From Trueperaceae bacterium (lineage in GTDB: Bacteria > Deinococcota > Deinococci > Deinococcales > Trueperaceae): 64,000 nucleotides of DNA. A program made the position numbers and the translations under genes. Positions 16,812 through 47,872 of the stretch are shown in pieces. Each line of letters starts with the position of its first letter. Position 1 is the stretch's first letter. The notes beneath the pieces were generated by a model. The model did not search any database, was not told the origin of the DNA, and saw only the letters and a list, made by a program, of their open reading frames with translations. Location: assembly GCA_034521815.1 (NCBI GenBank), contig JAXHLW010000013.1:1120001-1184000 (forward strand), in the 5' to 3' direction.

Positions 16812-17036
16812 CGTCGTGCGCAGGCGGAGGTCGTCCGCGGGCGCCCGGCCTCCCAACCGGAGAACGCGCCCGCGACGGTCCGAACCTCGCTCCCCACGTC
16901 CCTTCCTGGCATGAGGATAGGACGCGACGCATGAAGCGCACGTGAGATGTTTCCTATGGGAACGACGGTCGTCCCACGCGACGGGCGATCGTCGCGCAGG
17001 TACGAGGAGCATGTCACGGGATTCGTCACGAAATTC

Positions 17037-29782: not shown

Positions 29783-32769
29783 GCCGGCGACGACATCGCC
29801 CGCCCGGAGGCCGAGCCGACGGCCGCTCCCCGACGGTCCAGCGCATCGTCCGCGTCGCGACCGTGCTCGCTGTCGTGCTCGCGTGCGCCGGCATCGCGGC
29901 GGCCGAGACGGTCCAGATCGACACGGGCGGCGACCCCGAAGCGCGGCTGGAGCTTCGCACCGTCGTGTTGCCGGGCGGCGAGCAGCGCGAGCTCTACGTG
30001 GTGTCGGCCGAGCGGGTCGTCGTGACGCGAGGCGACCTGGTGCTGATCGCCTCCCGACTCGAGTTCGATCCCGACGCCGGCGTGGTTCGCATCGTCGGTC
30101 GCGGGCGCGTCGAACGCCCGGGCGACGTGCTGGTCGGCGACGATCTGGTCGTTCAGCTCGACGACGGTCGCCTGGACGGCGGCGACGTGCTCGTCATCAC
30201 CGACAGGGTCGACGTCCGGGGCGAGCGCGCCCAGCGGGTCGAGGGGCGCATTCACCTGCTCGAGGGGCGATTCAGCCCGTGCGGCCGCTGTGGGCAGGAG
30301 ATCGAGGACTACGCGTTCGTGGCCGACCGGATCGAGATCCTGCCGGGCGATCGCCTGATCGCGTGGCAGGTCGTGGTCCTGATCCGGGACGCGCCGTTCG
30401 TGGCGCTCCCCCTGCTGGTTCTACCGTTGGCCGAGCCGGCCCGGATCCCTCGCCTCGAGATCGTGCGCGGCGGCGAAGACGCGCAGGCGGAGATCGCCGT
30501 CGACTGGCCGTACGTCTCCGGGCCGAACGCGTTCGGCACCTTCCGTGCCCGGCTGATCATCGACGTGGAGCCCGACCAGGGCGGTCCGGTCGGCGACCGT
30601 CTCCTCGGGGGACGGCCCGAACGGGCGTACCTGGCGGGAGGATTCGACCATCGCTTCTACGACGAGCGGGGGGCCGGCCGCATCGAAGTCGACTACCGGC
30701 CCCGGTTCGCGTCGGAGCGTTCCGACGACCCGGCGACCACCGACCCGGAGCTCAGGTTCGAGGCCCGCTACGACTCCGACGCGGCCGCGGGCGATCCGGT
30801 CGTTTCGGTACGCCTGGCCCGCGACGACGACGCCCGCCCGAACCTCGTCGAGGCCGAGGCCAGCGTCGCCGCCCACGCCGGCGGTTTCCGGACCGAGGCG
30901 TCCAGTCGCGTCGCCATCCCGTTGGAGGCCGGCGTCACGACGCGCCCCAGCTGGGACGGCTCGCGAACGCCGCGAACGGCTCCCGTCCGCCTCCGCGCCG
31001 AGGGCGAGGAGGCGTTCCCGTTCCGTGCCGGCGCGCTGACGCTCGACCGGCTTTCCGTCGACGTCGGCGTGTTCGAGGACGCTCCCGACCCGACGAACCG
31101 GAGTGCCGTGGCCCTGGGGCGGCCGTTCGTCACGGCCGGACGGGCGGAGCTCGCTCACGGGCTCACGCTGGCCCCGGTCGACGTGGCGGGCGTCGAGCTC
31201 AGCGGGCGCACCTCGTTCGTGGGCCGGTACTACGACACCGGCGAGCGACAGATCGACTGGGACAGCGAGCTCAGGGCTCGGCGTTCGCTCGGCGATCTGG
31301 GCTCGGTCGAGCTCCGTCTTCGCCGGGACGCGGCCGAAGGCGAGACGCCGTTCGCATTCGACCGGATTCCGCTCCGCTCGCGAAGCGACCTGGTCGCCTC
31401 GCTCTCTCTCCGCCCGCTCCCGGGAACGCGGCTGTCGGCGGAGGGCGGCTGGCTGCTCGAGGACGACCGCGCACCGGACGAGGTGGGCCTGTTGCCGACC
31501 ACCGTCCGCCTCGAAGCGTTCACGAACGTGAGGGCCATCGACCTGTCGCTGGTGCACGAGGCCGACCCCGCGGAAGGAGACCTCGGCACCGCTCGGCTAC
31601 GGCTCGACGTCCGCGTACCCTCGAGCGCTTGGACGGCGCGCCTGGAGGCGGACGCGCTGCTCGACCTGGACCCCGCCAAGTCGCCGGGCCGGTTCGACGA
31701 CGCGCCACGCGACACCTCGCGCGCCGAGGCGACGGCGTCCCTCGGCGCGACCGATCTCCTCGTCGCGAAGGCTTCGGGCGGTTTCGAGGTCGAGCCGGTC
31801 CGAAACCCGGAAAGCTTCTGGACGCCGCTCGAGCTGTCGGCGACGCTGGGCACGTTGGCCGCCGACGACGCACGGCCGGGGCTCGAGGCGTTCTGGACGT
31901 TCGATCCCGACGACGGCGAGACCGAGGAGGCCGGATACCGGTTCGCGGTCGATCTCGGTCCCGTCCGCGGCGAGATCGAGCAGCGCTTCGGCCCGCCGGG
32001 AGGCGCTCCGGGCCGCCACAGCTTCGCGGTCGTCTGGCGCGATCTCGGCCGCGTCACGGTGGACGGCGTCGAGCTGGTGCCTGCGTCATGGCTGGGGCTC
32101 GAGCCCGACCCGGCCGCGATCCGGCGGCTGTCGGTCCGCGTGGAGGACACGGGATCGGTCCCAGGGGCGCGCTTTCGCGCGGAGTACCGCACCAGCCTCG
32201 TGCCCCGCGGCGACGAGGTCGTTCGGCAGGGCACGAGGTTCGAGGCCACGCTCCGCCTGAGCGAGCGTCGCTTCGCGTCGGGCCTCGTCCGCGCCGCCGT
32301 GGATGCCTTCGTCGACGTCCCGCTCCCGGACGACGGACAACCGACCGCCTATCTGCGGCGCGCCAACCTCCAGCTGGGCCTCGACGTCGCCGGCCGCGTC
32401 GGCCTGCAGGGCACGTTCGGCTACCGTGGCAGCTACGACGTGACCACGGAATCGGTTCGGAGCGGTCGGCTGTCGTTCGAGGAGGTGTCGCTGGTCGTGC
32501 GAGCGACGAACGAGCTGTACCTCGGCGCCACCCTCGACGACGTCTGGGAGATCGTCGACGACGATCCCGCCAGCGACCTGGCCCTGGACCCGAGGCCCAC
32601 GCTGTTCGCGACCTGGGACCGCTGCTGCTGGGCGCTGTACACGAGCTGGGATACCCGCTCCGGCGAGGTCGTGCTCACCCTCGGCGCGCCAGGTAGGAGC
32701 GAAGGACCCCAGTTCACGCTCGATCAGGGGCCCTCCATCCCCTGGGGCGAGGAAGGAGCGGCTCCATGA
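29779..32769 (+). CDS. Large outer-membrane protein, LptD-like
   Basis: Signal peptide, N-terminal beta-jellyroll-like region with FSPCGRC, long beta-rich C-terminus ending DRCCWA; follows two LptF/G genes. Confidence 0.7.
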   Translation: MSRRRHRPPGGRADGRSPTVQRIVRVATVLAVVLACAGIAAAETVQIDTGGDPEARLELRTVVLPGGEQRELYVVSAERVVVTRGDLVLIASRLEFDPDAGVVRIVGRGRVERPGDVLVGDDLVVQLDDGRLDGGDVLVITDRVDVRGERAQRVEGRIHLLEGRFSPCGRCGQEIEDYAFVADRIEILPGDRLIAWQVVVLIRDAPFVALPLLVLPLAEPARIPRLEIVRGGEDAQAEIAVDWPYVSGPNAFGTFRARLIIDVEPDQGGPVGDRLLGGRPERAYLAGGFDHRFYDERGAGRIEVDYRPRFASERSDDPATTDPELRFEARYDSDAAAGDPVVSVRLARDDDARPNLVEAEASVAAHAGGFRTEASSRVAIPLEAGVTTRPSWDGSRTPRTAPVRLRAEGEEAFPFRAGALTLDRLSVDVGVFEDAPDPTNRSAVALGRPFVTAGRAELAHGLTLAPVDVAGVELSGRTSFVGRYYDTGERQIDWDSELRARRSLGDLGSVELRLRRDAAEGETPFAFDRIPLRSRSDLVASLSLRPLPGTRLSAEGGWLLEDDRAPDEVGLLPTTVRLEAFTNVRAIDLSLVHEADPAEGDLGTARLRLDVRVPSSAWTARLEADALLDLDPAKSPGRFDDAPRDTSRAEATASLGATDLLVAKASGGFEVEPVRNPESFWTPLELSATLGTLAADDARPGLEAFWTFDPDDGETEEAGYRFAVDLGPVRGEIEQRFGPPGGAPGRHSFAVVWRDLGRVTVDGVELVPASWLGLEPDPAAIRRLSVRVEDTGSVPGARFRAEYRTSLVPRGDEVVRQGTRFEATLRLSERRFASGLVRAAVDAFVDVPLPDDGQPTAYLRRANLQLGLDVAGRVGLQGTFGYRGSYDVTTESVRSGRLSFEEVSLVVRATNELYLGATLDDVWEIVDDDPASDLALDPRPTLFATWDRCCWALYTSWDTRSGEVVLTLGAPGRSEGPQFTLDQGPSIPWGEEGAAP

Positions 32770-36744: not shown

Positions 36745-38262
36745 ATGAGCCAGCTCGTTCTCGGTCTCGCACGCGCTCTGTGCGTGCTTCTGCCCGTCGC
36801 GCTGGGTTTGGCCAGCGCACAAGACGCACCGCCCCCGAGCCACGGTGGCGAGGTCGTCGTCGCGATCGCCGCCGATCCGCCGGGATGGGATCCGACCGTG
36901 TCCACGTCTCAGGAGATCCCGCGCGTCGTCTACCACAACGTGTTCGAGGGCCTCGTCCGGTTCGACCGGAACGGCGAGATCGTGCCCGCGCTGGCCGAGT
37001 CGTGGACGCTTTCAGGTGATGCCCTCTCGCTCACGTTTCACGTCCGTCGGGGCGTGCGTTTCCACGACGGGCGTCCGTTGACGCTGAACGACATCGTGGC
37101 GAAGTTCGACCGGGCGCGAGATCCGGACTCGGGTCATACCAACGCCGCCTACTACGAGACGATCGACGCCCTCGTCGTGGACGAGGAGGCGCACACGGTC
37201 ACGTTCCTCCTGTCCAGGCCCACGCGAAGCCTGCTCTACGACCTGGCCCGGCCCGACTCGGTCGTCTACCCCGCCGGCACCGAGACCAGCCAGCGAGGTC
37301 GGCCCGTAGGCACGGGCCCGTTCCGGTTCGTGGAGTATCGCGAGGGCTCGGAGGTGCGGCTGGAGCGGTTCGAGGACTACTATCTGGACGGCGTTCCGTA
37401 TCTCGACGCCGTCCGGTTCAGGATCATCGGCGATCCCAACACCCGCTACGCGGCGCTGCGTGCTGGGGACGTGGACCTGATCGGCACGTCGCTCGCGCCC
37501 GAGCAGTTCCTGCAAGCTCGGCAGGATCCTTCGCTCGTCGCCACGGAAGGCACCGCCACGACGGAGATCACGCTGGCGATGAACAACGCGCGTGCGCCGT
37601 TCGACGACGTTCGCGTTCGACAGGCGATCACGCACGCGATCGACAAGCGCGCCATCGTCGAGGGCGCCATGTTCGGGCTGGGGACCGTCATCGGGACCCA
37701 CATGAGCCCGGCCGAGCCGTACTACCTGGATCTGACGGACACCTACCCGTACGATCCCGATCGCGCCCGAGAGCTGTTGGCCGAGGCCGGCTACCCGGAT
37801 GGGTTCGACGTCGCCTTCGAGCTGCCCGAGCCGTACGCGCTCGAGCGCCGCAGCGGCCAGGTGATCGCCCAGCAGCTCGCCGAGGTGGGGATCGACGTGG
37901 AGCTGAGCGTGGTCGAGTGGGGGACGTGGATCCAGCGCATCTTCCTCGGCGCCGACTACGACATGACGATCATCGGTCATTCCGAGCCGCGGGACATCGA
38001 CGTCTACGCCGACCCGGAGTACTACTTCCAGTACGAGAACCCACGGGTCGCCACCCTCGTGACCGAGGCGGAGTCGGCCTCGACCCGAGAGGCCGAGATC
38101 GCCGCCTACCGCGAGATCGCTCGCATCATCGCCGACGATGCCGTCGCCGTCTGGGTCTTCAGCCCTCCGTACCTGGTCGCCGCGCGCGAGGACGTGCACG
38201 GCTTCTGGACCGACCAGCCGACACCGGCGATCGACATGACCGAGGTCCATCGGGGGCCCTGA
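36745..38262 (+). CDS. Peptide/nickel ABC transporter substrate-binding protein (family 5)
   Basis: Signal peptide, NVFEGLV, PALAESW, RRGVRFHDG, VGTGPFRF, PFDDVRVRQAI, YDPDRARELLAEAG; AGGAGG RBS. Confidence 0.93.
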   Translation: MSQLVLGLARALCVLLPVALGLASAQDAPPPSHGGEVVVAIAADPPGWDPTVSTSQEIPRVVYHNVFEGLVRFDRNGEIVPALAESWTLSGDALSLTFHVRRGVRFHDGRPLTLNDIVAKFDRARDPDSGHTNAAYYETIDALVVDEEAHTVTFLLSRPTRSLLYDLARPDSVVYPAGTETSQRGRPVGTGPFRFVEYREGSEVRLERFEDYYLDGVPYLDAVRFRIIGDPNTRYAALRAGDVDLIGTSLAPEQFLQARQDPSLVATEGTATTEITLAMNNARAPFDDVRVRQAITHAIDKRAIVEGAMFGLGTVIGTHMSPAEPYYLDLTDTYPYDPDRARELLAEAGYPDGFDVAFELPEPYALERRSGQVIAQQLAEVGIDVELSVVEWGTWIQRIFLGADYDMTIIGHSEPRDIDVYADPEYYFQYENPRVATLVTEAESASTREAEIAAYREIARIIADDAVAVWVFSPPYLVAAREDVHGFWTDQPTPAIDMTEVHRGP

Positions 38263-38314
38263 CCCGGTCCACGCGAGCGCCGGGTCGTTCCAGCGCCGCT
38301 CCCGCATCCCGCTC

Positions 38315-39262
38315 ATGCTTCTCTACCTCGTCCGTCGCGCCCTGACCGCAGTGGTGAGCGTCGTGCTCGCGTCGCTGGTGGTGTTCTCGGCTCTGCTGGC
38401 GATCCCGGGCGATCCTGCCGAGATCATCCTCGGGCTGGACGCCTCGCCCGAGGCACGGACGGCGCTTCGAGACCAGCTCGGGCTGAACCGGCCCGCCCCC
38501 GTCAGGTATCTGACGTGGGTGGCCGGCGCGTTGCGGGGCGACCTGGGCGAGTCGATCGTCTACCAGCGCCCCGTGCGTGCCCTGATCGCGGATCGGCTGG
38601 GCGTTTCGGTTCCGCTGGCCTTGGGGGCCGCCCTGATCGCCGGCCTGATCGCGCTGCCGCTGGGCCTGCTCGCGGCGCTTCGTCGGGGCACCTGGGTCGA
38701 TCCCGTCGTGACCTCGGTCGCGCAGCTGGGAGCTGCCGTACCGTCGTTCTGGCTGGGCTTGCTGTTCGTCCTGCTGTTCGCCGTCGAGCTCGGGTGGCTG
38801 CCGGCTGGAGGCTTCTCGCCCTGGGCTCGCGATCCGGTCGCCAGCATGCGGAGTCTCGTTCTGCCGATGCTGGCGCTGGGCCTCGGCCAAGCAGCGGTCA
38901 TGACGCGCATGACGCGGTCGTCCATGATCGAAGCGTTGGCGCAGGATTACGTCCGGACGGCACGCGCCAAGGGGCTTCCACCGGCTCGCGTCACCTTCGG
39001 CCACGCGCTCCGGAACGCCCTGGTCACGCTGGTCACGATCCTCGGGCTGAGCCTCACCAACGTGTTCATCGGTTCGATCGTGATCGAACAGGTCTTCGCC
39101 CTTCCTGGGCTCGGGCAGCTGGCGCTCACGGCGATCGGCACGCGCGATCTGCCTCTCGTCCAGGGGGAGATTCTGCTCTACGCCACGACCATCATCGTGT
39201 TGAGCTTCCTGGTGGATGCGTCGTACGCGCTGCTCGACCCGCGGATTCGGTACGAGGCATGA
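38315..39262 (+). CDS. Peptide ABC transporter permease (DppB/OppB-like)
   Basis: PGDPA, GDLGES, PSFWLG, QDYVRTARAKGL (EAA loop), HALRNAL, LDPRIR. Confidence 0.93.
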   Translation: MLLYLVRRALTAVVSVVLASLVVFSALLAIPGDPAEIILGLDASPEARTALRDQLGLNRPAPVRYLTWVAGALRGDLGESIVYQRPVRALIADRLGVSVPLALGAALIAGLIALPLGLLAALRRGTWVDPVVTSVAQLGAAVPSFWLGLLFVLLFAVELGWLPAGGFSPWARDPVASMRSLVLPMLALGLGQAAVMTRMTRSSMIEALAQDYVRTARAKGLPPARVTFGHALRNALVTLVTILGLSLTNVFIGSIVIEQVFALPGLGQLALTAIGTRDLPLVQGEILLYATTIIVLSFLVDASYALLDPRIRYEA

Positions 39263-40107
39263 GCACCACCTGGAGGTCGTCTTCGGCTGGGCGGCTGCTG
39301 CGGCGAGCGGGGCCGAGCTTCTGGATCGGGGGCGCCCTCATCGTCGTCGTCGTCGCCGCAGCGCTGGTCAGCTTCGTGTGGACGCCGTACCCGCCCAACG
39401 CTCTCGACTTCTCCGTGCAGCTGCAAGGTCCTAGCTGGAGCCATCCGCTGGGCACCGACCATTTCGGGCGCGACCTGCTCAGTCGCGTGCTGGTCGGGGC
39501 GCGCTCGACGCTGTACGTCGGGGTTCTGGCCGTCGGGCTCGCATTGGGCCTCGGCAGCACCGTCGGTCTCGTGTCGGGCTGGGTGGGCGGATGGGTCGAC
39601 GACGCCGTCATGAGGCTCGTGGACGTGCTTTACGCGTTTCCTGCGATTCTGATGGCGCTGCTCCTCGCCGCGGTGTACCGCCCTGGCACGTTTACGGCGA
39701 TGACGGCCATCGGCCTCGCGACCGTCCCGATCTTCGCCCGTATCGCGCGATCGTCGGCGTTGACTCTTCGTTCGGCACCGCACGTCGAGGCGGGTCGCGC
39801 CTTGGGGGCACGACCTCGCGAGGTGCTGCTGCGTCACGTCGTTCCTGGCGCGCTGTCTCCTCTCGTGATCCAGGCCAGCCTGAGCCTGTCGGTCGCCGTG
39901 CTGGCCGAGGCGGCCCTGAGCTTCCTGGGCCTGGGCACCCCGCCGGACGTGCCTAGCTGGGGCAACATGCTGCGCGAGGCTCAAGGGTTTCTCGCCATGA
40001 GTCCGTATCCGGCGCTCGTCCCCGGGTTGGCGATCGTCGCGACCGTGCTGGGATGGAGCCTTCTCGGTGACGGCCTCCGCGACCTGTTGGACCCTCGGCT
40101 CCGCTGA
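39259..40107 (+). CDS. Peptide ABC transporter permease (DppC/OppC-like)
   Basis: HPLGTDHFGRDLLSR, VEAGRALGA, EAALSFLGLG, PSWGNML, GDGLRDLLDPR; ATGA overlap with dppB. Confidence 0.93.
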   Translation: MSTTWRSSSAGRLLRRAGPSFWIGGALIVVVVAAALVSFVWTPYPPNALDFSVQLQGPSWSHPLGTDHFGRDLLSRVLVGARSTLYVGVLAVGLALGLGSTVGLVSGWVGGWVDDAVMRLVDVLYAFPAILMALLLAAVYRPGTFTAMTAIGLATVPIFARIARSSALTLRSAPHVEAGRALGARPREVLLRHVVPGALSPLVIQASLSLSVAVLAEAALSFLGLGTPPDVPSWGNMLREAQGFLAMSPYPALVPGLAIVATVLGWSLLGDGLRDLLDPRLR

Positions 40108-40134
40108 CCTGTCCATCTGCGTCGTGGACGGGTC
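40106..40134 (+). terminator. Hairpin immediately after the peptide ABC operon
   Basis: GACCTGTCCA-tctgcgtcg-TGGACGGGTC; no U-tract, so terminator function is uncertain. Confidence 0.45.
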
Positions 40135-40223
40135 GGCAACAACGCTTGCGTACGGCAACCGGGATGCAACCCTCCTCGGACAACACTCCTCTTAGGCGGG
40201 AAACCAACCGGAGGAGGTTGTCG

Positions 40224-40778
40224 ATGTCGCAAAGCACGTTAGGCGTCCACGTCCACTCGTCGCATCCAGCGTTCCTGAGTCTGATCCAGGAGGTGATGGA
40301 GCGACCGGACGTGGAGCCCCACGGAACGGGAGAGTCGGGCGTCGCGCACGTCTTGCTCGACTTCCCGCTCACGTGGACTCTTTATCAGCTCGAGCGTCTC
40401 GATAGCATCGATCGTGCTCGCACCCTCATCGTCACGCAAGCGACGCATCCTGCCTACCTCGATTGCCTCGCGAGCTACCACGTCAGCGGCGTCGCGACGA
40501 CCACGGACTCTCACGGCATCATCGCCGGTCTCTACGCAGCGGCGTCAGCGCAGCGCAGCTACCATTACCGCTCACCGTTGACGTTCATGGAGCTCCGTGT
40601 GGTCCGCCTGCTTCTGATGGGGTACGACACGCAGCGCGCAGCGAAGGATCTGGGCGTCTCGTACAAGACGGTGAACGCGCACGTCTCGAACGCGCTCTGC
40701 AAGCTGGGTTACGACAACCGAGCCCAGCTCGTCGTCCACCTGATGGGCGTCGATCCCGACTCCGACATCTTCGGCTGA
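40224..40778 (+). CDS. LuxR/NarL-type HTH regulator with an atypical (pseudo-)receiver N-terminus
   Basis: C-terminal LTFMELRVVRLLLMGYDTQRAAKDLGVSYKTVNAHVSNALCKLGYDNRAQL is a LuxR HTH; VLLDFP resembles a receiver beta3-Asp; GGAGGAGG RBS. Confidence 0.85.
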   Translation: MSQSTLGVHVHSSHPAFLSLIQEVMERPDVEPHGTGESGVAHVLLDFPLTWTLYQLERLDSIDRARTLIVTQATHPAYLDCLASYHVSGVATTTDSHGIIAGLYAAASAQRSYHYRSPLTFMELRVVRLLLMGYDTQRAAKDLGVSYKTVNAHVSNALCKLGYDNRAQLVVHLMGVDPDSDIFG

Positions 40779-40779
40779 G

Positions 40780-43266
40780 TCAGAGCCCCCACTCTCCGCG
40801 AATCCGGCGTACACGAGCTCGAATGAGCGGGTACGCCGGATCATCTTTGGGCGTGAGGTCCTTGGCCGCTTCCCACAGCTCGAGGTCCTCCGGGAACTTC
40901 CGGGCCAAGCGCACCGCCAGGTCCGCCTCGCCCGCGTGCATCACAGCCTGTCGAACGGCTTCGTCGATACGCTCGCGCGCTCGAATCACACCCGGCGCCT
41001 CCGACTCGGGTAGCAACGGTCCCTTGTACAACTCCAGTGCCTGGCGGGTATCCCCCGCGGCAAGGCAGGTTTCGAGGTCGACGGCGTCAACGTAGGGAGC
41101 CACGGCAAACCTATAAGGAATTGACTGAATATCGATGATCTGTCGAGCCCGCGAGACTGTCGCCTTTAGGGTACTCATTTGGCCCATCTCACCGTAAAGC
41201 TCGTACAGGAGTGCCTCGCCATTCAACCCCTCTGGATGCATTGCCAGGATGACGAATAGCTCGGCAAATCGCAAACTCAACCTGCGGCGGTTTCCTTGCT
41301 CCTCGAGGAGGCGGCTTCCGAAAACATTCAGGCGCACACGGTGCCCTGAACCTGACCCCACTAGTCGTTGAAGGCGGTCTACGTCGGCGTCCGGAGGCGC
41401 GAGGAGCACCCAACCGCTCCGCCCTAGACCAATAAGCACCTCAGAGTGCCCCAGCAGAAGACTATGTGCCAGACGTTCATTGCCACTTCGGAGCTCGTTC
41501 GCTGCAGCAGCGATCGTCAACTCCGCACGGAGTACAGCATCCGAAGCCACGAGTTGCTCCGAGAGCAACTCGCTCACGACCCTACGGTCCAGAGAGCCTC
41601 GCGCGGCTTTGATGAGTACGTCGGCTGCTCGAAGCCCAATCTTCTCGCTTTCATCCGAATGCCCAGCTAGTTCCTCTGCCACGGCCAGAGCAGTCGCCGC
41701 CTCGTCGAAGCGCCTCTGATGCAACAAGCCACGGACGAAATGCCGAGCCGCATAGCCTGGTAGTTGCGAAGAAAACTGACGGTAGAGCGACTCGTAATAG
41801 CGAGTTGCTTCCGCCGGACGTCCATTGACTAGCGCGTAGTCACCAAAGGTCGATACCAGGCCCTCGAGGGTTGGGGGCAGACCCACATCAACGCTGATCT
41901 GCACCCGTTTCAGTTGCTCTTCGCCAGCCTCGATATCGCCCACGAGCAACTGTGCGTAGGTCAGAAGATTGATGCTGGACAGGCGAAGCAGTTCCTCGCG
42001 AATGTCCCACTTCCTCAAGTCTTCGAGACTCTTCCTCGCCCAAAGTATTGCTCGGCGATACTCACCCAATTGAACATAGACCGATCCGATGCTGTTTGAG
42101 AGCTGGATGGATCGATGGTGCCTTCGCGCTTTGCGATACCCGTCAAAAGCCTCCTTGAACAGCGAGATGCCTTGAGTCAGATCACCCATCACAACATTCA
42201 AAAATCCGACGGCCGCAACAGTCTCGGGTGTTCGCGCGACGCTCATCGCGCGTTGCGCAATGGACATCGCCTCTTTGGGCCGAACGACTGACGCATATGC
42301 GGCTGAAAGGGCTGGGGCTTCTCGAGCGTACTTTTCAAGATACGCAGCCACCTGGTCTTGGATTTCGCTCTGTTCACCGAGACCGGCGTACGCTTGGAAC
42401 CACCAGTATCTGGCAACGGGATGCCTTGGAAAATCAATAACAAGCCGCGTTAGGAGATGCTTGAATCTTAAGACCTGTCCCTGTGCGAAGTACGCTTCTC
42501 CCACGTCATCAAGCATCTCAAGCGATTGGCTGTTGCTGAGACGAACCGCATCCTCGAACGCATTCGTAAGCTCGGCTTGGGACAAAACCGGAGGTACGTC
42601 TTCGACCCGTCGGCGGGAAGACAATCGAGCTGCACGAGCATTTTCCGATTGACCGCGTAGGGACGAAAGGTTCATGCCGTCTGAGTGTGATTGTAAGAAA
42701 TGCTCGTATGGCACGCCTGCGACCGCCGCGTTGTCGCCCAAGAGCTGTTGATTAACCCCTTCGTCAGCACCTGTCATTTCACGAACCTCAGCTGGCGTGA
42801 CCTCAAGGTCTTTCTCGGTCATTACGTCACCTGAGAAATCAGCAACGAGGCTACGCCATTCCTTTGTCTCGCCTGACCCGGCGACTGCAACCTTCAATCT
42901 GAATCGAGATCTTATCGACGTGACAACGGCGGCTCGGCAAAAAGCTGCGTTGTGGTCGCCATCGTTTACAAGAAGGAATAGAGGCCCCAGTTCTTCTGAA
43001 AGGCCCACGAGGTAGTTCAGTGCATACGAGTAAGGCATGCCGGTGCCGAACAAGGTCGCGCCCACAGACTCACGGACGGCACGGCTCAACTTGTTGCCGA
43101 TGGCGACTGAATCATCGCCCGCTTCAAGGGTGATCCAGATGAACGACGTAGATGCACCAGCAATTTCCTCAAAGACATACGACAGACCAAACTCCGGACG
43201 AGCATCGACAATCGTTGACGTCGATCGGAACACAATGGCTTTCGTCTGTCTTTCAAACCAGCCCAA
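40780..43266 (-). CDS. Large TPR-containing transcriptional regulator (degenerate MalT-like N-terminus, TPR core, C-terminal winged HTH + BTAD-like region)
   Basis: Long ORF in a low-GC block. Helical TPR-like repeats (NSIGSVYVQLGEYRRAILWARKSLE; TFGDYALVNGRPAEATRYYE). C-terminal LSLRFAELFVILAMHPEGLNGEALLYELYG..TLKATVSRAR..PYRF and ALELYKGPLLPESEAPGV. Start set at TTG 43266 (GGGAG 7 nt upstream); the ORF is open to 43323. Confidence 0.8.
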   Translation of the reverse strand: MGWFERQTKAIVFRSTSTIVDARPEFGLSYVFEEIAGASTSFIWITLEAGDDSVAIGNKLSRAVRESVGATLFGTGMPYSYALNYLVGLSEELGPLFLLVNDGDHNAAFCRAAVVTSIRSRFRLKVAVAGSGETKEWRSLVADFSGDVMTEKDLEVTPAEVREMTGADEGVNQQLLGDNAAVAGVPYEHFLQSHSDGMNLSSLRGQSENARAARLSSRRRVEDVPPVLSQAELTNAFEDAVRLSNSQSLEMLDDVGEAYFAQGQVLRFKHLLTRLVIDFPRHPVARYWWFQAYAGLGEQSEIQDQVAAYLEKYAREAPALSAAYASVVRPKEAMSIAQRAMSVARTPETVAAVGFLNVVMGDLTQGISLFKEAFDGYRKARRHHRSIQLSNSIGSVYVQLGEYRRAILWARKSLEDLRKWDIREELLRLSSINLLTYAQLLVGDIEAGEEQLKRVQISVDVGLPPTLEGLVSTFGDYALVNGRPAEATRYYESLYRQFSSQLPGYAARHFVRGLLHQRRFDEAATALAVAEELAGHSDESEKIGLRAADVLIKAARGSLDRRVVSELLSEQLVASDAVLRAELTIAAAANELRSGNERLAHSLLLGHSEVLIGLGRSGWVLLAPPDADVDRLQRLVGSGSGHRVRLNVFGSRLLEEQGNRRRLSLRFAELFVILAMHPEGLNGEALLYELYGEMGQMSTLKATVSRARQIIDIQSIPYRFAVAPYVDAVDLETCLAAGDTRQALELYKGPLLPESEAPGVIRARERIDEAVRQAVMHAGEADLAVRLARKFPEDLELWEAAKDLTPKDDPAYPLIRARVRRIRGEWGL

Positions 43267-43373
43267 TGCGATTCTCCCGTGTTGTCGGTGACACGAAGAG
43301 CCGGTCCACGTGGCCGACGGCAACTAGGATGTCGGCTACACATACGCCGGTTTCGTTCGACATGCTCGCCTTA

Positions 43374-43392
43374 AGTATATTTGCCAGCAAAT
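43374..43392 (-). promoter_or_regulatory. Putative -10 box (TATACT) abutted by palindrome ATTTGC-N2-GCAAAT upstream of the TPR regulator
   Basis: Plus strand agtata (43374-79) and atttgccagcaaat (43379-92). Confidence 0.45.
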
Positions 43393-43586
43393 GCAGGGTG
43401 AGCCACTCTAATGATTTGCCGACATGTTGTGCGATATGAACCCCGTGTCTCGAACACTGGCGCCGGCGAAAAACTTCATAATCGATCACATGGTCGCTGT
43501 GGAGCACCCATCTCGTACATCGAGCGTCAGACTGGGACAGATTGAAGCCTTCGTACAATGGGGTTCCGACACTCATGCTCACACAA

Positions 43587-43620
43587 TTAAGCGGGCCCGC
43601 AATCAATGCGGACCCGCTCA
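43587..43620 (-). terminator. Strong hairpin downstream of the small peptide gene
   Basis: Minus strand UGAGCGGGUCCGCA-uugau-UGCGGGCCCGCUUA followed by AUUGUGU. G-U pairs fit minus-strand transcription; starts 17 nt after the peptide stop. Confidence 0.7.
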
Positions 43621-43637
43621 GTCAGTTTGCCGGAGAG

Positions 43638-43739
43638 TTAGCGCTGCGAAAGATGAACGCCCGCGAGAACCATCAACGGAACGTTAACAACAGCAACGAA
43701 GAGTGCAGTAGCGAAGATGCGCTTTCCAGTGTTCTTCAT
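43638..43739 (-). CDS. Small secreted pro-peptide, 33 aa: MKNTGKRIFATALFVAVVNVPLMVLA-GVHLSQR
   Basis: Translated by hand (below the ORF-track cutoff): ATG 43739 to TAA 43638, AGAGGA/GGGA upstream. Basic n-region, hydrophobic h-region, VLA|G cleavage-like site, followed by a terminator-like hairpin. Confidence 0.75.
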   Translation of the reverse strand: MKNTGKRIFATALFVAVVNVPLMVLAGVHLSQR

Positions 43740-43783
43740 TTTGTCCCATCCTCTTCTTGCACCCAGTACAGGTGCACAAGCAC

Positions 43784-43993
43784 CGTCCCAGGCCTCCCAA
43801 CCTGTTCTCGGACGATGTTGTTGGGGTCTCCCAACCCCAACGCTCTGGGTGATTAAACACCCACTTCTGACCGGTTTTGCTTAGGTTGTGGCTATCGAAC
43901 CTCTCCCAAGCTCCCGATCTCTTCCGAATACGGCGGTGACAACCACCGTTACGTTGGGGGCCTCCCAACCCTTGTTCCAACGTGATCGGAAAG
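43784..43993 (+). ncRNA. Putative structured non-coding element with repeated YCUCCCAA-loop hairpins
   Basis: CTCCCAA at 43794, 43828, 43903 and 43962, at least three of them enclosed by stems; G-U pairs favour the + strand. Confidence 0.5.
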
Positions 43994-44153
43994 TAGCACG
44001 CGATGCTTGAAAGCGTCAAGAGAAAAAGCGAACAGGCTCAAGGCCGCCATTTTCTCCGCACCGAACCCGAGTCAACTCCGTTGACGTATCGTGTGCGGCA
44101 TGGCGGAGGACAGCCACATCAGAAGTCGCGTTGAAGAAGTTCACCCTGGAGCC

Positions 44154-45326
44154 ATGCTTGAAAGCGTCGTCCAAGGGTGGGTATACCTCGAAGACTTCGA
44201 TAGAGGTATTGAAGCCTATCGCCACATTGAAACGCCGACAGCCGACGACGATCGATGGCTTGGCGTCTGTCATTTCCAACGCGTTGAAGATGCTCTTGCA
44301 CAGCAAGCATTCGAAAGAGCGATTACAAAAGGGCAGCAGGCGGCCAGAGTCAACCTCGCGCATCTGCTTAGAATGTCAGATCGTGCCGATCGCGCGACCG
44401 ATGAACTTCAGAATGTGGATTTCGCCCGGTTGACCCCATACGATCAGGTCTTTTTCCTTCGCGTGAAGAGTATCCACGAAGAGACAAACGGGAACCTTCG
44501 CGAAGCACTTCGCTTCTCTGAAGAGGCGTGGCGAAGGCTTCAAGGCATTCCAGAGTTCTCGATCCTCGCGCCATCCATTCTGTCTCAACTGGGAATTCTT
44601 CACGGGCGTATAGGTCGTGCCCAACGGGCCATATGGTTTCTCGAGCGAGGCATTCAACTGACCTCTGGCCTCCAACAACTCAAGGCTCGCATTCGTTGGG
44701 CAACGGTCTTGGTAGCGCAAGGTCGAACCGCTGATGCCACTGAGGCGCTGGCCAACGTAGATCCATCCATGATTCCGGAACCAATGACAGTCGAAGTCGA
44801 GTGGCTTAAGGCTGAAATCGCTTGGTTACTTGGAAACAGCGAAGACGCCCTGCAGCGCTACGCCGTCGCCATCGCCGTCGCTCAGCGCCATAATGTGGTC
44901 TACGAAGAGTTCCTTTGTCAGTTAGCCCTTTCAACCATCTTTGCGTTCCGGGGTGAAGATGCTTTGGCAACCGAGCACCTACAAAGAGCACAAGGGCTTG
45001 TAAGTGATCGCTCTGACCAACTGACGTATCGGTTTCGCGAGATACTCATCTTCTCGGCAATTGGGCTGTACAGAGACGATCATGCCATCCGAGAGTTGCT
45101 TGAGACCTCAGAAGCCTTTGGCGATATGGGCTTACTTCAAGAACAAGGATTCGTTCGCTTTCACATATGCCATCTCAAGAAACGAAGTGGCGACAGTTCC
45201 TATACAGAGGAGCTTGACGCTATATATCTACTCGCTAAGAGTCTTCAGAACCCAGCTTTTCTTGAACGTGAGCTTCGGCTCGTTCCCACGATGAAAGATG
45301 TCATCGAAATGGAGCTCCCAGCCTAG
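44154..45326 (+). CDS. TPR-only protein (~390 aa, no DNA-binding domain evident)
   Basis: Repeated TPR-like helices (ILSQLGILHGRIGRAQRAIWFLERGIQL; WLKAEIAWLLGNSEDALQRYAVAIAVA). Start uncertain (44091, 44100 or 44154). Confidence 0.8.
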   Translation: MLESVVQGWVYLEDFDRGIEAYRHIETPTADDDRWLGVCHFQRVEDALAQQAFERAITKGQQAARVNLAHLLRMSDRADRATDELQNVDFARLTPYDQVFFLRVKSIHEETNGNLREALRFSEEAWRRLQGIPEFSILAPSILSQLGILHGRIGRAQRAIWFLERGIQLTSGLQQLKARIRWATVLVAQGRTADATEALANVDPSMIPEPMTVEVEWLKAEIAWLLGNSEDALQRYAVAIAVAQRHNVVYEEFLCQLALSTIFAFRGEDALATEHLQRAQGLVSDRSDQLTYRFREILIFSAIGLYRDDHAIRELLETSEAFGDMGLLQEQGFVRFHICHLKKRSGDSSYTEELDAIYLLAKSLQNPAFLERELRLVPTMKDVIEMELPA

Positions 45327-45395
45327 CTCCGGTAGCACTACCCGTTACGTGGTCAGGGTAAGAACTTTGTAAGACCCCATCGATACACTCAAGTC

Positions 45396-45492
45396 GTGGA
45401 TTCGAGGTGACTCTCCCCTTGTCATCGCCTCGCTCCCATTCTCTTCCGAACGGCGGACCCCGTACCTCCCATACGGGGTTCGCGCCTTTTGT
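45396..45492 (+). ncRNA. Putative ~95-nt sRNA with C-rich loops ending in an intrinsic terminator
   Basis: TACACT (45384-89) just upstream; hairpin CGAGGTGAC-tctcccctt-GTCATCGCCTCG; hairpin GGACCCCGTA-cctccca-TACGGGGTTC followed by GCGCCTTTTGT. Confidence 0.5.
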
Positions 45493-45579
45493 GCCACAGA
45501 CATGATTCTCGTGCCCGCCAGGTGTCGACGGGCCGCGCCGAGCCCAGGCTGGCCCTCGTCCGCCTCTCGGCCGCGTTCC

Positions 45580-45609
45580 TTGCGGTCGGGTCGCGATTTG
45601 TGGTTTAAT
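45580..45609 (+). promoter_or_regulatory. Putative rpsA promoter
   Basis: TTGCGG - 18 nt - TTTAAT with TG extension (TGGTTTAAT). Confidence 0.5.

Positions 45610-45652: not shown

Positions 45653-47872
<2,220 letters not shown>

Follow-up and report, generated by a model that had tools for sequence, protein, structure and literature searches.

The hairpin array at positions 43784..43993 of a 64,000-nt stretch of a Trueperaceae genome (Deinococcota; assembly GCA_034521815.1, contig JAXHLW010000013.1, positions 1,120,001 to 1,184,000; hereafter the window, from whose first letter all coordinates are counted) lies in the 5' leader, about 245 nt long, of a small-peptide mRNA on the minus strand. 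The motif repeated in the array reads UUGGGAG(R) in this minus-strand transcript and forms Shine-Dalgarno-like G-rich loops. We suggest, with a probability of roughly 0.62, that the array provides docking sites for a trans-encoded small RNA (sRNA) of about 95 nt. The leader and the sRNA are complementary, and their complementarity co-varies in trans. The locus as a whole looks like a Rap/Phr-type peptide-signalling module.

A preliminary description of the window had presented the array as plus-strand hairpins with anti-Shine-Dalgarno-like YCUCCCAA loops. Four clustered copies of CTCCCAA are indeed present on the plus strand (43794, 43828, 43903 and 43962), irregularly spaced by 34, 75 and 59 nt, with one further copy in the window at 16850. 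The supposed excess over shuffled sequence holds for the clustering but not for the count. The five copies in the whole window compare with 3.93 expected and are at chance level (five were reached in 35 of 100 shuffles), whereas the genome (2.63 Mb scanned) contains 62 copies of TTGGGAG on both strands and only this cluster has three or more within 300 nt. The three hairpins first described were recovered by folding (43983-43951, 43841-43820 and 43814-43784), and so were the GGCGGTG/CACCGTT hairpin (43948-43931) and the outer TTCCGA/TCGGAA stem. Three of the four motif copies cap hairpins, but the copy at 43903 forms a strand of a long-range helix instead of a loop.

The RNA is placed on the minus strand because promoter, open reading frame (ORF), U.G pairs and fold energy agree, and its loops are therefore G-rich and not anti-Shine-Dalgarno. 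The G-U pairs, which had been thought to favour the plus strand, point the other way, as the conserved wobbles are U.G on the minus strand and C-A on the plus strand. Each minus-strand loop is a GGGA tetraloop closed by U.G and then by U.G or U-A. The closing U.G was found in 38 of 38 sequences for the first hairpin (P1) and in 28 of 29 for the fifth (P5). Folding both strands, as had been proposed, favoured the minus strand at -114.1 kcal/mol (z-score -4.97) over the plus strand at -87.1 kcal/mol (z-score -2.93). A simple promoter and terminator scan of 43400-44300 made no calls on either strand, and the peptide promoter and a terminator-like hairpin were assigned from conservation and inspection. 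The position of the TTGACG-18-TGCTACTTT promoter predicts transcription to start near 43983, which gives the leader length of about 245 nt. The strict pattern TTGnnn-N13-16-TGnTAnnnT matched upstream of 22 of 40 leaders, with visibly similar elements in the remainder.

Comparison with related loci supports the earlier proposal of selection at the RNA level, as the loops are invariant, the stems differ and compensatory changes occur. All 40 leaders (the window and 39 related loci) have UUGGGAG loops and contain two to five TGGGAG copies in the 330 nt before the ORF. GGGAG sits on stems of at least 4 bp in 89 of 160 copies, compared with 3.2% of 2000 random positions. P1, with the consensus CAAUCGA..GGGUUGGGAGRCCC..UCGAUUCG in relatives, covaries strongly, with 49 cells changed on both sides among 38 sequences against 17.0 +/- 3.5 in shuffled data. 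P5, with the consensus GGGUUGGGAGACCC in 29 of the 34 long leaders, has changes in eight of nine pairs and 40 cells changed on both sides among 29 sequences (shuffled 17.9 +/- 3.4). None of 500 shuffles reached either observed count, and both counts were also well above slid controls. The P1 set was assembled without L028 (mis-picked) and L030 (upstream DNA cut off), and the P5 set without the five long leaders lacking GGGAG at this position.

When the 34 long leaders were aligned globally with MAFFT, RNAalifold detected no helices besides P1 and P5, and the others rest on folds of individual sequences. A hairpin of -6 kcal/mol or lower is predicted at the P2 position in 30 of these 34 leaders on unrelated stem sequences, and its loop is GGGA in 12 of 34 relatives. 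The adjacent box1 (UUCGGAAGAG-N-GGGAG) occurs in all 34. A helix joining box1 to a CUCC segment also folds in relatives on different sequences, and a variable hairpin at the P4 position is predicted for most of them. The P6 loop reads UUGGGAG, AUGGGAG or CUGGGA in many leaders but not all. The ribosome-binding box GGAAG(A)GGAUGGGA is conserved, with the leader consensus UUCGGAAGGAUGGGA. Six leaders are short at about 130 nt (L018, L021, L028, L030, L037 and L048). The five that are readable in full (the upstream DNA of L030 being cut off) apparently comprise two G-loop hairpins, one other hairpin and the ribosome-binding box.

The 33-aa product encoded after the leader resembles a pro-peptide or else a small membrane peptide. 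Ten positions are invariant among 40 sequences (M1 K2 N3 G5 K6 R7 I8 F9 A26 R33), in a layout with a charged invariant N-terminus, a hydrophobic core, Ala26, a near-invariant Gly27, three variable residues and a conserved SQR. At the DNA level, the region was detected in 12 of 60 relatives, and 11 of these loci were inspected (L014, a 23-nt match, was left out). In all 11, this 33-aa peptide is encoded and preceded by (U)UGGGAG motifs on its own strand, and 10 keep a divergent gene for a TPR protein. An alignment search with this TPR protein in species-representative genomes yielded 45 loci, mostly titled Trueperaceae metagenome-assembled genomes, of which three had no DNA upstream of the TPR gene. 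The peptide and its leader were found in 41 of the 42 usable loci (39 by regular expression and two with the variant MKNNGRKIF...), and L052 has neither. A six-frame profile search identified the peptide in 45 of 102 Trueperaceae genomes (four matches are weak, with E between 3e-5 and 0.009) and in none of 198 genomes from four other families of the phylum.

Metatranscriptome contigs were examined over 43300-44500 and give neither strand nor ends. They cover 43659-43946 only (two runs of one study), and one DNA contig spans the entire 43300-44500. No RNA contigs covered 43300-43627 or 43956-44500, an absence that alone proves nothing, and the pattern is a weak hint of a short, abundant transcript.

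The putative partner of the leader lies between the TPR stop codon and rpsA, where a motif-cluster scan found three minus-strand TGGGAG at 45320-45471. At least 17 related loci besides the window share this element, which, as read from the alignment of its copies, is an unannotated and conserved sRNA gene predicted on the plus strand. Hairpin 1 carries CUCCC in 18 of 19 copies (the loop of L057 differs), and the terminator loop reads CCUCCC(A/U) in 18 of 19 and CUCCCA in the copy of L030. Overall, 95.7% of cells are paired in the structure count, seven of ten pairs in the terminator stem changed on both sides, and the G.U pairs are on the plus strand. With a covariance model (R1), the sRNA was identified in 90 of 128 Trueperaceae genomes, among them G261, which carries an unpublished flag. 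These genomes represent 27 of 36 genera and have one to six copies each. The distance to the peptide gene is about 2.2-2.5 kb in at least 15 genomes, and the distance to the array in the window is 1.5 kb. A comparison of genome lists placed the sRNA in 40 of the 44 genomes with a strong peptide match, including the genome of the window. The misses are three fragmented assemblies (79-89% complete) and one genome absent from the sRNA list. Tandem copies occur about 190-260 nt apart in L032 (4774-5047), L044 (4761-5106), G020 and G199, and genome G013 has up to six dispersed copies.

The sRNA loop CCUCCCA is the exact complement of UGGGAGG in the leader. Folding the whole leader against the whole sRNA with duplexfold produced unrealistic giant duplexes and weak z-scores, and a scan with the 24-nt linker was used instead. 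Of the 17 cognate pairs, 14 had their best duplex at box1 (-29 to -41 kcal/mol). The ribosome-binding box was the second-best site at -22 to -29 kcal/mol, and the best one in two genomes with short leaders. The best linker energy beat all 30 shuffled linkers in 16 of 17 pairs. The genus g4 (G013 and G211) combines a different peptide with a leader of the same design and unlinked sRNA copies. In g4, box1 (GAGAGAAAUGGGAG) and the sRNA linker (CAUCCCAUUUCUCUCCC) are both altered yet matching, at -31 to -38 kcal/mol. The two RNAs probably pair in the cell, as suggested by these energies and by the co-variation. Coordinates of all elements are compiled in the table.

Predicted features of the peptide, receptor and sRNA locus, in window coordinates
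Feature	Position	Strand	Description
847-aa protein	40780..43323	-	TPR repeats and BTAD-like C-terminal region; downstream of the peptide gene
Terminator-like hairpin after ORF	43590..43618	-	U-poor tail; assigned by inspection
33-aa ORF	43638..43739	-	MKNTGKRIFATALFVAVVNVPLMVLAGVHLSQR; pattern MKNTGKRIF...AG-xxx-SQR
P7 hairpin and ribosome-binding box	43743..43778	-	P7 43778-43759; box AGAAGAGGAUGGGAC 43757-43743
P6 hairpin	43784..43814	-	CGUCC..CAGGUU[GGGA]GGCCUG..GGACG; third G-loop, plus-strand motif 43794
P5 hairpin	43820..43841	-	GUUGGGGUU[GGGA]GACCCCAAC; second G-loop, plus-strand motif 43828
P4 hairpin	43847..43864	-	UGGGUG[UUUAAU]CACCCA
Mid-domain long-range helix	43869..43919	-	GAUCGG/CCGGUC and GCUUGGG/CCUAAGC; includes the paired motif copy 43903
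box1	43910..43928	-	UUCGGAAGAGAUCGGGAGC; 5' half unpaired, GGGAG half opens the mid-domain helix
P2 hairpin	43931..43948	-	CGGUGG[UUGU]CACCGCCG in the window
P1 hairpin	43951..43983	-	ACGUUGG...GGGUU[GGGA]GGCCC...CCAACGU; first UUGGGAGG loop, plus-strand motif 43962
Peptide promoter	43990..44019	-	-35 TTGACG 44019-44014, 18-nt spacer, extended -10 TGCTACTTT, hexamer 43995-43990
TPR protein, 411 aa	44091..45326	+	Divergent from the peptide gene; Rap-like by predicted fold; syntenic in 45 loci
Putative sRNA promoter	45358..45389	+	GTAAGAA 45358-64, GTAAGAC 45369-75, 11-bp period, 8-bp gap, -10 TACACT 45384-89
Predicted sRNA, about 95 nt	45395..45491	+	5' CGUGGA, hairpin 1, linker, terminator hairpin, U-tract
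sRNA hairpin 1	45403..45432	+	Loop CUCUCCCC in the window, CUCUCCCA in most relatives
sRNA linker (seed)	45433..45451	+	CUCCCAUUCUCUUCCGAAC; single-stranded CCCAUUCUCUUCCGAA in the window, CCCAUCUCUUCCGAA in relatives
sRNA terminator hairpin	45457..45479	+	GC-rich, loop CCUCCCA 45465-71, then U-tract

We propose that the leader would display three UUGGGAG(R) hairpin loops, box1 and a near-copy of box1 at the ribosome-binding site to an sRNA transcribed from the plus strand beyond the TPR gene. The sRNA loops (CUCUCCCC or CUCUCCCA in hairpin 1, and CCUCCCA) would kiss the G-loops of the leader, and the linker (CCCAUUCUCUUCCGAA) would zip onto box1 and the ribosome-binding box. The most likely outcome would be that the sRNA blocks ribosome entry and reduces peptide synthesis, with the upstream loops and box1 enabling fast, high-affinity capture. 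Because the locus looks Rap/Phr-type and the sRNA promoter looks activator-dependent, the sRNA might serve as a feedback arm on pro-peptide production. We infer both the repressive sign of the sRNA effect and the identity of the activator.

Several observations weigh against such a docking function. The sRNA is a same-strand relative of the P2-box1 segment of the leader, and complementarity therefore follows automatically from transcription of opposite strands. It could thus stem partly from duplication or gene conversion rather than from selection for pairing, although the g4 genomes, where box1 and linker have both changed and still match, counter this explanation. The sRNA transcript itself is predicted from sequence. 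With rpsA following about 160 nt downstream on the same strand, the sRNA could also be an rpsA attenuator. The RNA contigs come from a single study, are strandless and might reflect DNA carry-over. The predicted folds leave the ribosome-binding box inconsistently free or paired, with no switch evident. In addition, a GGGA tetraloop exposes four bases, and kissing over 7 bp needs the U.G closing pairs to open. Finally, the sRNA is commoner than the peptide and present in one to six copies per genome. The leader may hence not be its main target, and may instead act on the sRNA.

In the latter case, an abundant peptide mRNA with three to five G-rich loops and two boxes would sponge the C-loop sRNA, and expression of the peptide gene would relieve other mRNAs that the sRNA represses at their Shine-Dalgarno sequences. 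The wide distribution of the sRNA (90 of 128 genomes, against 45 of 102 for the peptide), its multiple copies and its lack of linkage in some genomes would suit such a role, and the leader sites outnumber what one sRNA molecule can occupy. CCUCC(CA) contains the anti-Shine-Dalgarno core of 16S rRNA, and the terminator loop could pair with strong ribosome-binding sites in general. Linker and box1 match specifically over a long stretch and co-vary, which argues for a dedicated pair, though a sponge would need this too. No other targets of the sRNA were identified, and hairpins with TGGGAG are not enriched in the genome (29 of 745, compared with 1.2-3.3% for control motifs), for which reason a genome-wide regulon of such hairpins was dropped as well. 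We consider the sponge rather unlikely. A type I toxin-antitoxin system would make the 33-aa product a membrane toxin, box1 a standby site for ribosomes and the sRNA an antitoxin that blocks box1, much as IstR-1 acts on tisB. The locus offers a small hydrophobic ORF, a long structured leader and an sRNA that is complementary to this mRNA, with pairing predicted at two places, the ribosome-binding site and a position about 180 nt before the start codon. However, the peptide occurs in a single copy and is strongly conserved (invariant N-terminus, A-G...SQR tail), it is syntenic with the Rap-like receptor in 41 of 42 loci, and its replacement in g4 has a signal sequence and a tandem hexapeptide, which is the pattern of a pro-peptide and not of a toxin. 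The two genes are also not adjacent, as a gene of 1.2-1.7 kb (the 1.2-kb TPR gene in the window) separates them, the sRNA is unlinked in g4, and it also occurs without the ORF. We regard a toxin-antitoxin function as quite improbable.

The G-loops might alternatively bind a protein in a CsrA-like mode, perhaps the TPR protein, or serve as standby or loading sites for the 30S subunit that boost translation. Identical loops on varied stems together with a copy at the ribosome-binding site form the classic layout of a CsrA target, and GGGAGG can pair with the 3' end of 16S rRNA. The layout is shared with CsrA/RsmA targets and the CsrB/RsmZ RNAs, which repeat GGA hairpin loops and have a copy overlapping the Shine-Dalgarno sequence, yet the leader motif is UUGGGAG and not A(N)GGA. 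The preliminary description had offered protein sites in a peptide mRNA leader as an alternative, which was right about the location. The implied CsrA (PF02599) was found in none of 61 genomes (the own genome, 83.5% complete, and 60 relatives), with matches in the controls E. coli, B. subtilis and T. maritima, and a leader or sponge regulated by CsrA/Rsm was therefore dropped as a reading. The TPR protein shows no RNA-binding domain in Pfam searches and has the predicted fold of a peptide receptor. A model with protein only leaves a co-varying, fully complementary RNA partner unexplained, and we regard these readings together as unlikely. Least credible is the original plus-strand RNA at 43784-43993 with YCUCCCAA loops, or else a set of TTGGGAG DNA boxes for the neighbouring regulators. 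The plus strand does fold better than its shuffles and regulator genes flank the site. Yet the plus strand would have C-A in place of the conserved U.G pairs and showed no promoter or terminator in the scan, and promoter and ORF are on the minus strand. DNA boxes are disfavoured by the irregular spacing and by the position of the motifs downstream of the predicted start, within the transcribed leader, where they need complementary arms, G.U pairs included, that covary as RNA stems. Both versions are highly improbable.

The docking proposal gains a biological setting from the divergent TPR gene. Its product was modelled with high confidence (pLDDT 93.1, the predicted local distance difference test), and its best full-length PDB matches are Phr-bound Rap proteins at template modelling (TM) scores of 0.64-0.74. 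In Foldseek, query- and target-normalised scores (TMq and TMt) were 0.64-0.66 and 0.72-0.74 for 4gyo, 0.66 and 0.71 for 4i9c, and 0.64-0.66 and 0.70-0.72 for 8rtc, 8rsv and 8rst, compared with TMq of 0.30-0.56 for other TPR proteins. The model thus appears to have the N-terminal helical bundle and TPR superhelix of a Rap-type receptor. Pfam reported TPR matches below cut-off only. When the TPR protein and the peptide were predicted as a complex, the score was 0.54, which is weak support, against 0.01 for the best of three controls; at least 45% of contacts agreed among runs, and partner pLDDT was at least 39. Of 157 solved complexes, 116 reached the mark used, as did 2 of 215 mismatched pairs, and the passing scores of 0.60 or less comprise 18 of the 157 solved complexes and both mismatches. 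The pass may reflect likeness to solved Rap-Phr complexes. The pattern of the 33-aa peptide, and the repeated tail in g4, would fit an exported pro-peptide with a short C-terminal product.

The locus resembles Rap-Phr and other RRNPP systems in its predicted receptor fold and in the adjacent small ORF with a charged N-terminus, hydrophobic core, Ala-Gly and short tail, to which the g4 lineage adds a tandem hexapeptide tail. It differs in belonging to the Deinococcota and not to the Firmicutes, in lacking a family match at the sequence level, and in that export, processing and re-import are predictions here. We know of no dedicated sRNA and leader pair for Rap-Phr. The second type of system in g4 was reached through two matches of a P1-hairpin model (R2), which holds little information (best matches 18-27 bits, E 0.001-0.6). 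At about locus position 1540 on the minus strand, L102 (G211) and L107 (G013) encode a 43-aa pro-peptide, MKRIARFAVSA...FA, with a signal-like N-terminus and a hexapeptide present twice in the tail (SGAERR..SGAERR or AGLEHR..AGLEHR). Its leader contains four UGGGAG and the ribosome-binding box GGAAGAGAAAGGGAG, and the gene is divergent from a homolog of the 411-aa TPR protein. In most genera (L017, L024 and most others) the TPR protein is longer, about 545 aa compared with 411 aa in the genus of the window, and has a C-terminal extension of about 140 aa. This extension has a borderline NNH6 match (27.6 bits, cut-off 27).

The sRNA promoter looks activator-dependent, judging by its repeats. SARP repeats lie 8 bp from the -10 element. 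According to PMC10972967, SARP promoters have heptamers that are directly repeated every 11 bp across the -35 region. Heptamers with this period (GTAAGAA-N4-GTAAGA) precede 16 of 19 sRNA copies, and a -10-like TAnnnT lies 5 nt before CGUGG in 18 of 19. The 847-aa protein, whose gene follows that of the peptide, might activate this promoter. Its BTAD match scores 21.7 bits (cut-off 22.1), its TPR matches are below cut-offs, and no winged-helix match was found in Pfam. BLASTP detected no similarity between the 847-aa protein and the 411-aa TPR protein or the C-terminal extension of the long TPR proteins. Homologs of the 847-aa protein are downstream of the peptide gene in 20 loci, and an HD-GYP-type protein takes this place in 15. 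The only other exact GTAAGA-N5-GTAAGA repeat in the genome is outside the window at C13:606660 (+), and could be a second promoter of the same activator.

The proposed pair of RNAs has counterparts in known systems without belonging to any of them. An Rfam search of the whole window, which had been proposed earlier, found no family at gathering threshold for either RNA; the only such match was an L31-Actinobacteria leader (RF03158) at 30696-30738 (+), with 38.7 bits against a gathering threshold of 35, here in a genome of the Deinococcota. The best match to the leader was flg-Rhizobiales (RF01736) at 43746-43841 (-), with 21.6 bits and E 0.042, far below the gathering threshold of 55 and not sufficient for membership. 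Part of PMC2864571 lists flg-Rhizobiales as a candidate cis-regulatory RNA of Rhizobiales. Its Rfam alignment shows two adjacent hairpins with (U)UGGGAG(A/G) loops, that is GGGA loops, a likeness that would also suit protein binding, and it differs from the leader in taxon, downstream gene and overall architecture. The best match to the sRNA was the 6C RNA (RF01066) at 45447-45488 (+), with 21.1 bits and E 1.3 against a gathering threshold of 47. This match is sub-threshold and aligns the terminator hairpin alone. The 6C RNA of Actinobacteria is likewise a small RNA with two hairpins and C-rich loops, and acts on G-rich targets through these loops.

The S. aureus RNAIII, with conserved C-rich apical loops (H7/H13/H14), offers a parallel for the sRNA, and its targets rot and coa, with G-rich Shine-Dalgarno-like sequences in loops of the 5' untranslated region and at the ribosome-binding site, one for the leader. 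PMC2837412 describes how RNAIII controls rot and coa in a quorum-sensing setting, using its C-rich loops, contacts between loops and occlusion of the ribosome-binding site. Both halves of this arrangement are seen at the locus, with conserved C-rich loops in the sRNA and complementary G-rich sequences in the leader loops and at the ribosome-binding site. RNAIII and rot form two or more loop-loop contacts with occlusion of the site, and the same combination is predicted for the Trueperaceae pair. The RNAIII comparison had first been drawn for the array, but it fits the separate plus-strand sRNA at about 45395-45491, and the array takes the part of a rot-like target. The Trueperaceae sRNA has no sequence homology to RNAIII and belongs to another phylum. 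It is about 95 nt long, its peptide is encoded by the target mRNA and not by the sRNA, and it adds a linear seed of 17-24 nt with two alternative sites.

The leader with structured G-loops and the sRNA with C-loops represent two RNA families of the Deinococcota that are absent from Rfam 15. We found no paper in the open-access literature on sRNAs of Trueperaceae or Truepera, or on RRNPP systems in Deinococcota. Pairing that is predictable from sequence and checkable by co-variation makes the locus a clean test case for multi-site kissing-loop regulation, and the context suggests peptide signalling of the Rap/Phr type outside the Firmicutes. If true, regulation by C-rich and G-rich loops, as in Staphylococcus and Actinobacteria, arose independently in another phylum and was wired into cell-cell signalling. 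A more far-reaching picture is tentative and on balance doubtful. Trueperaceae would then possess complete Rap/Phr-like quorum sensing with RNA feedback, the sRNA would be a wider anti-Shine-Dalgarno regulator, and the mRNA would be both target and sponge. In this combination, a C-loop sRNA driven by an activator through heptamer repeats might capture the pro-peptide mRNA by several kissing loops and a linear seed, in an RNAIII-like circuit split over two RNAs.

The surroundings of the locus have further features. The genes for the LuxR-type protein, the 847-aa TPR/BTAD-like protein, the peptide, the TPR protein and the sRNA share a low-GC island (40100-45600), with 54-62% GC against about 70-73% elsewhere, which may reflect horizontal origin or constraint. 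Immediately upstream of the island is a peptide-type ABC importer (36745-40107), with SBP_bac_5 (303 bits) and two permeases. In Firmicutes, RRNPP peptides are taken back up by oligopeptide permeases, and the adjacency here may be a coincidence. The LuxR-type gene (40146-40778, plus strand) encodes a protein of 210 aa that has an unassigned N-terminal half and ends in a GerE/LuxR helix-turn-helix (44.1 bits), and in the same-genus locus L012 a homolog with 77% identity lies directly upstream of the peptide gene. This protein may be a ComA-like partner of the Rap-like protein. The rpsA gene (ribosomal protein S1; 45653-47872, plus strand), which follows the TPR gene in 25 loci, encodes a long acidic Ala/Glu-rich C-terminal tail. 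At 16833-16872 (minus strand), the P1 model gave 23.4 bits for an isolated GGUUGGGAGGCC hairpin on a stem of 7 bp. This hairpin is embedded in long ORFs that overlap one another and was rejected as a regulon member, being probably a chance match.

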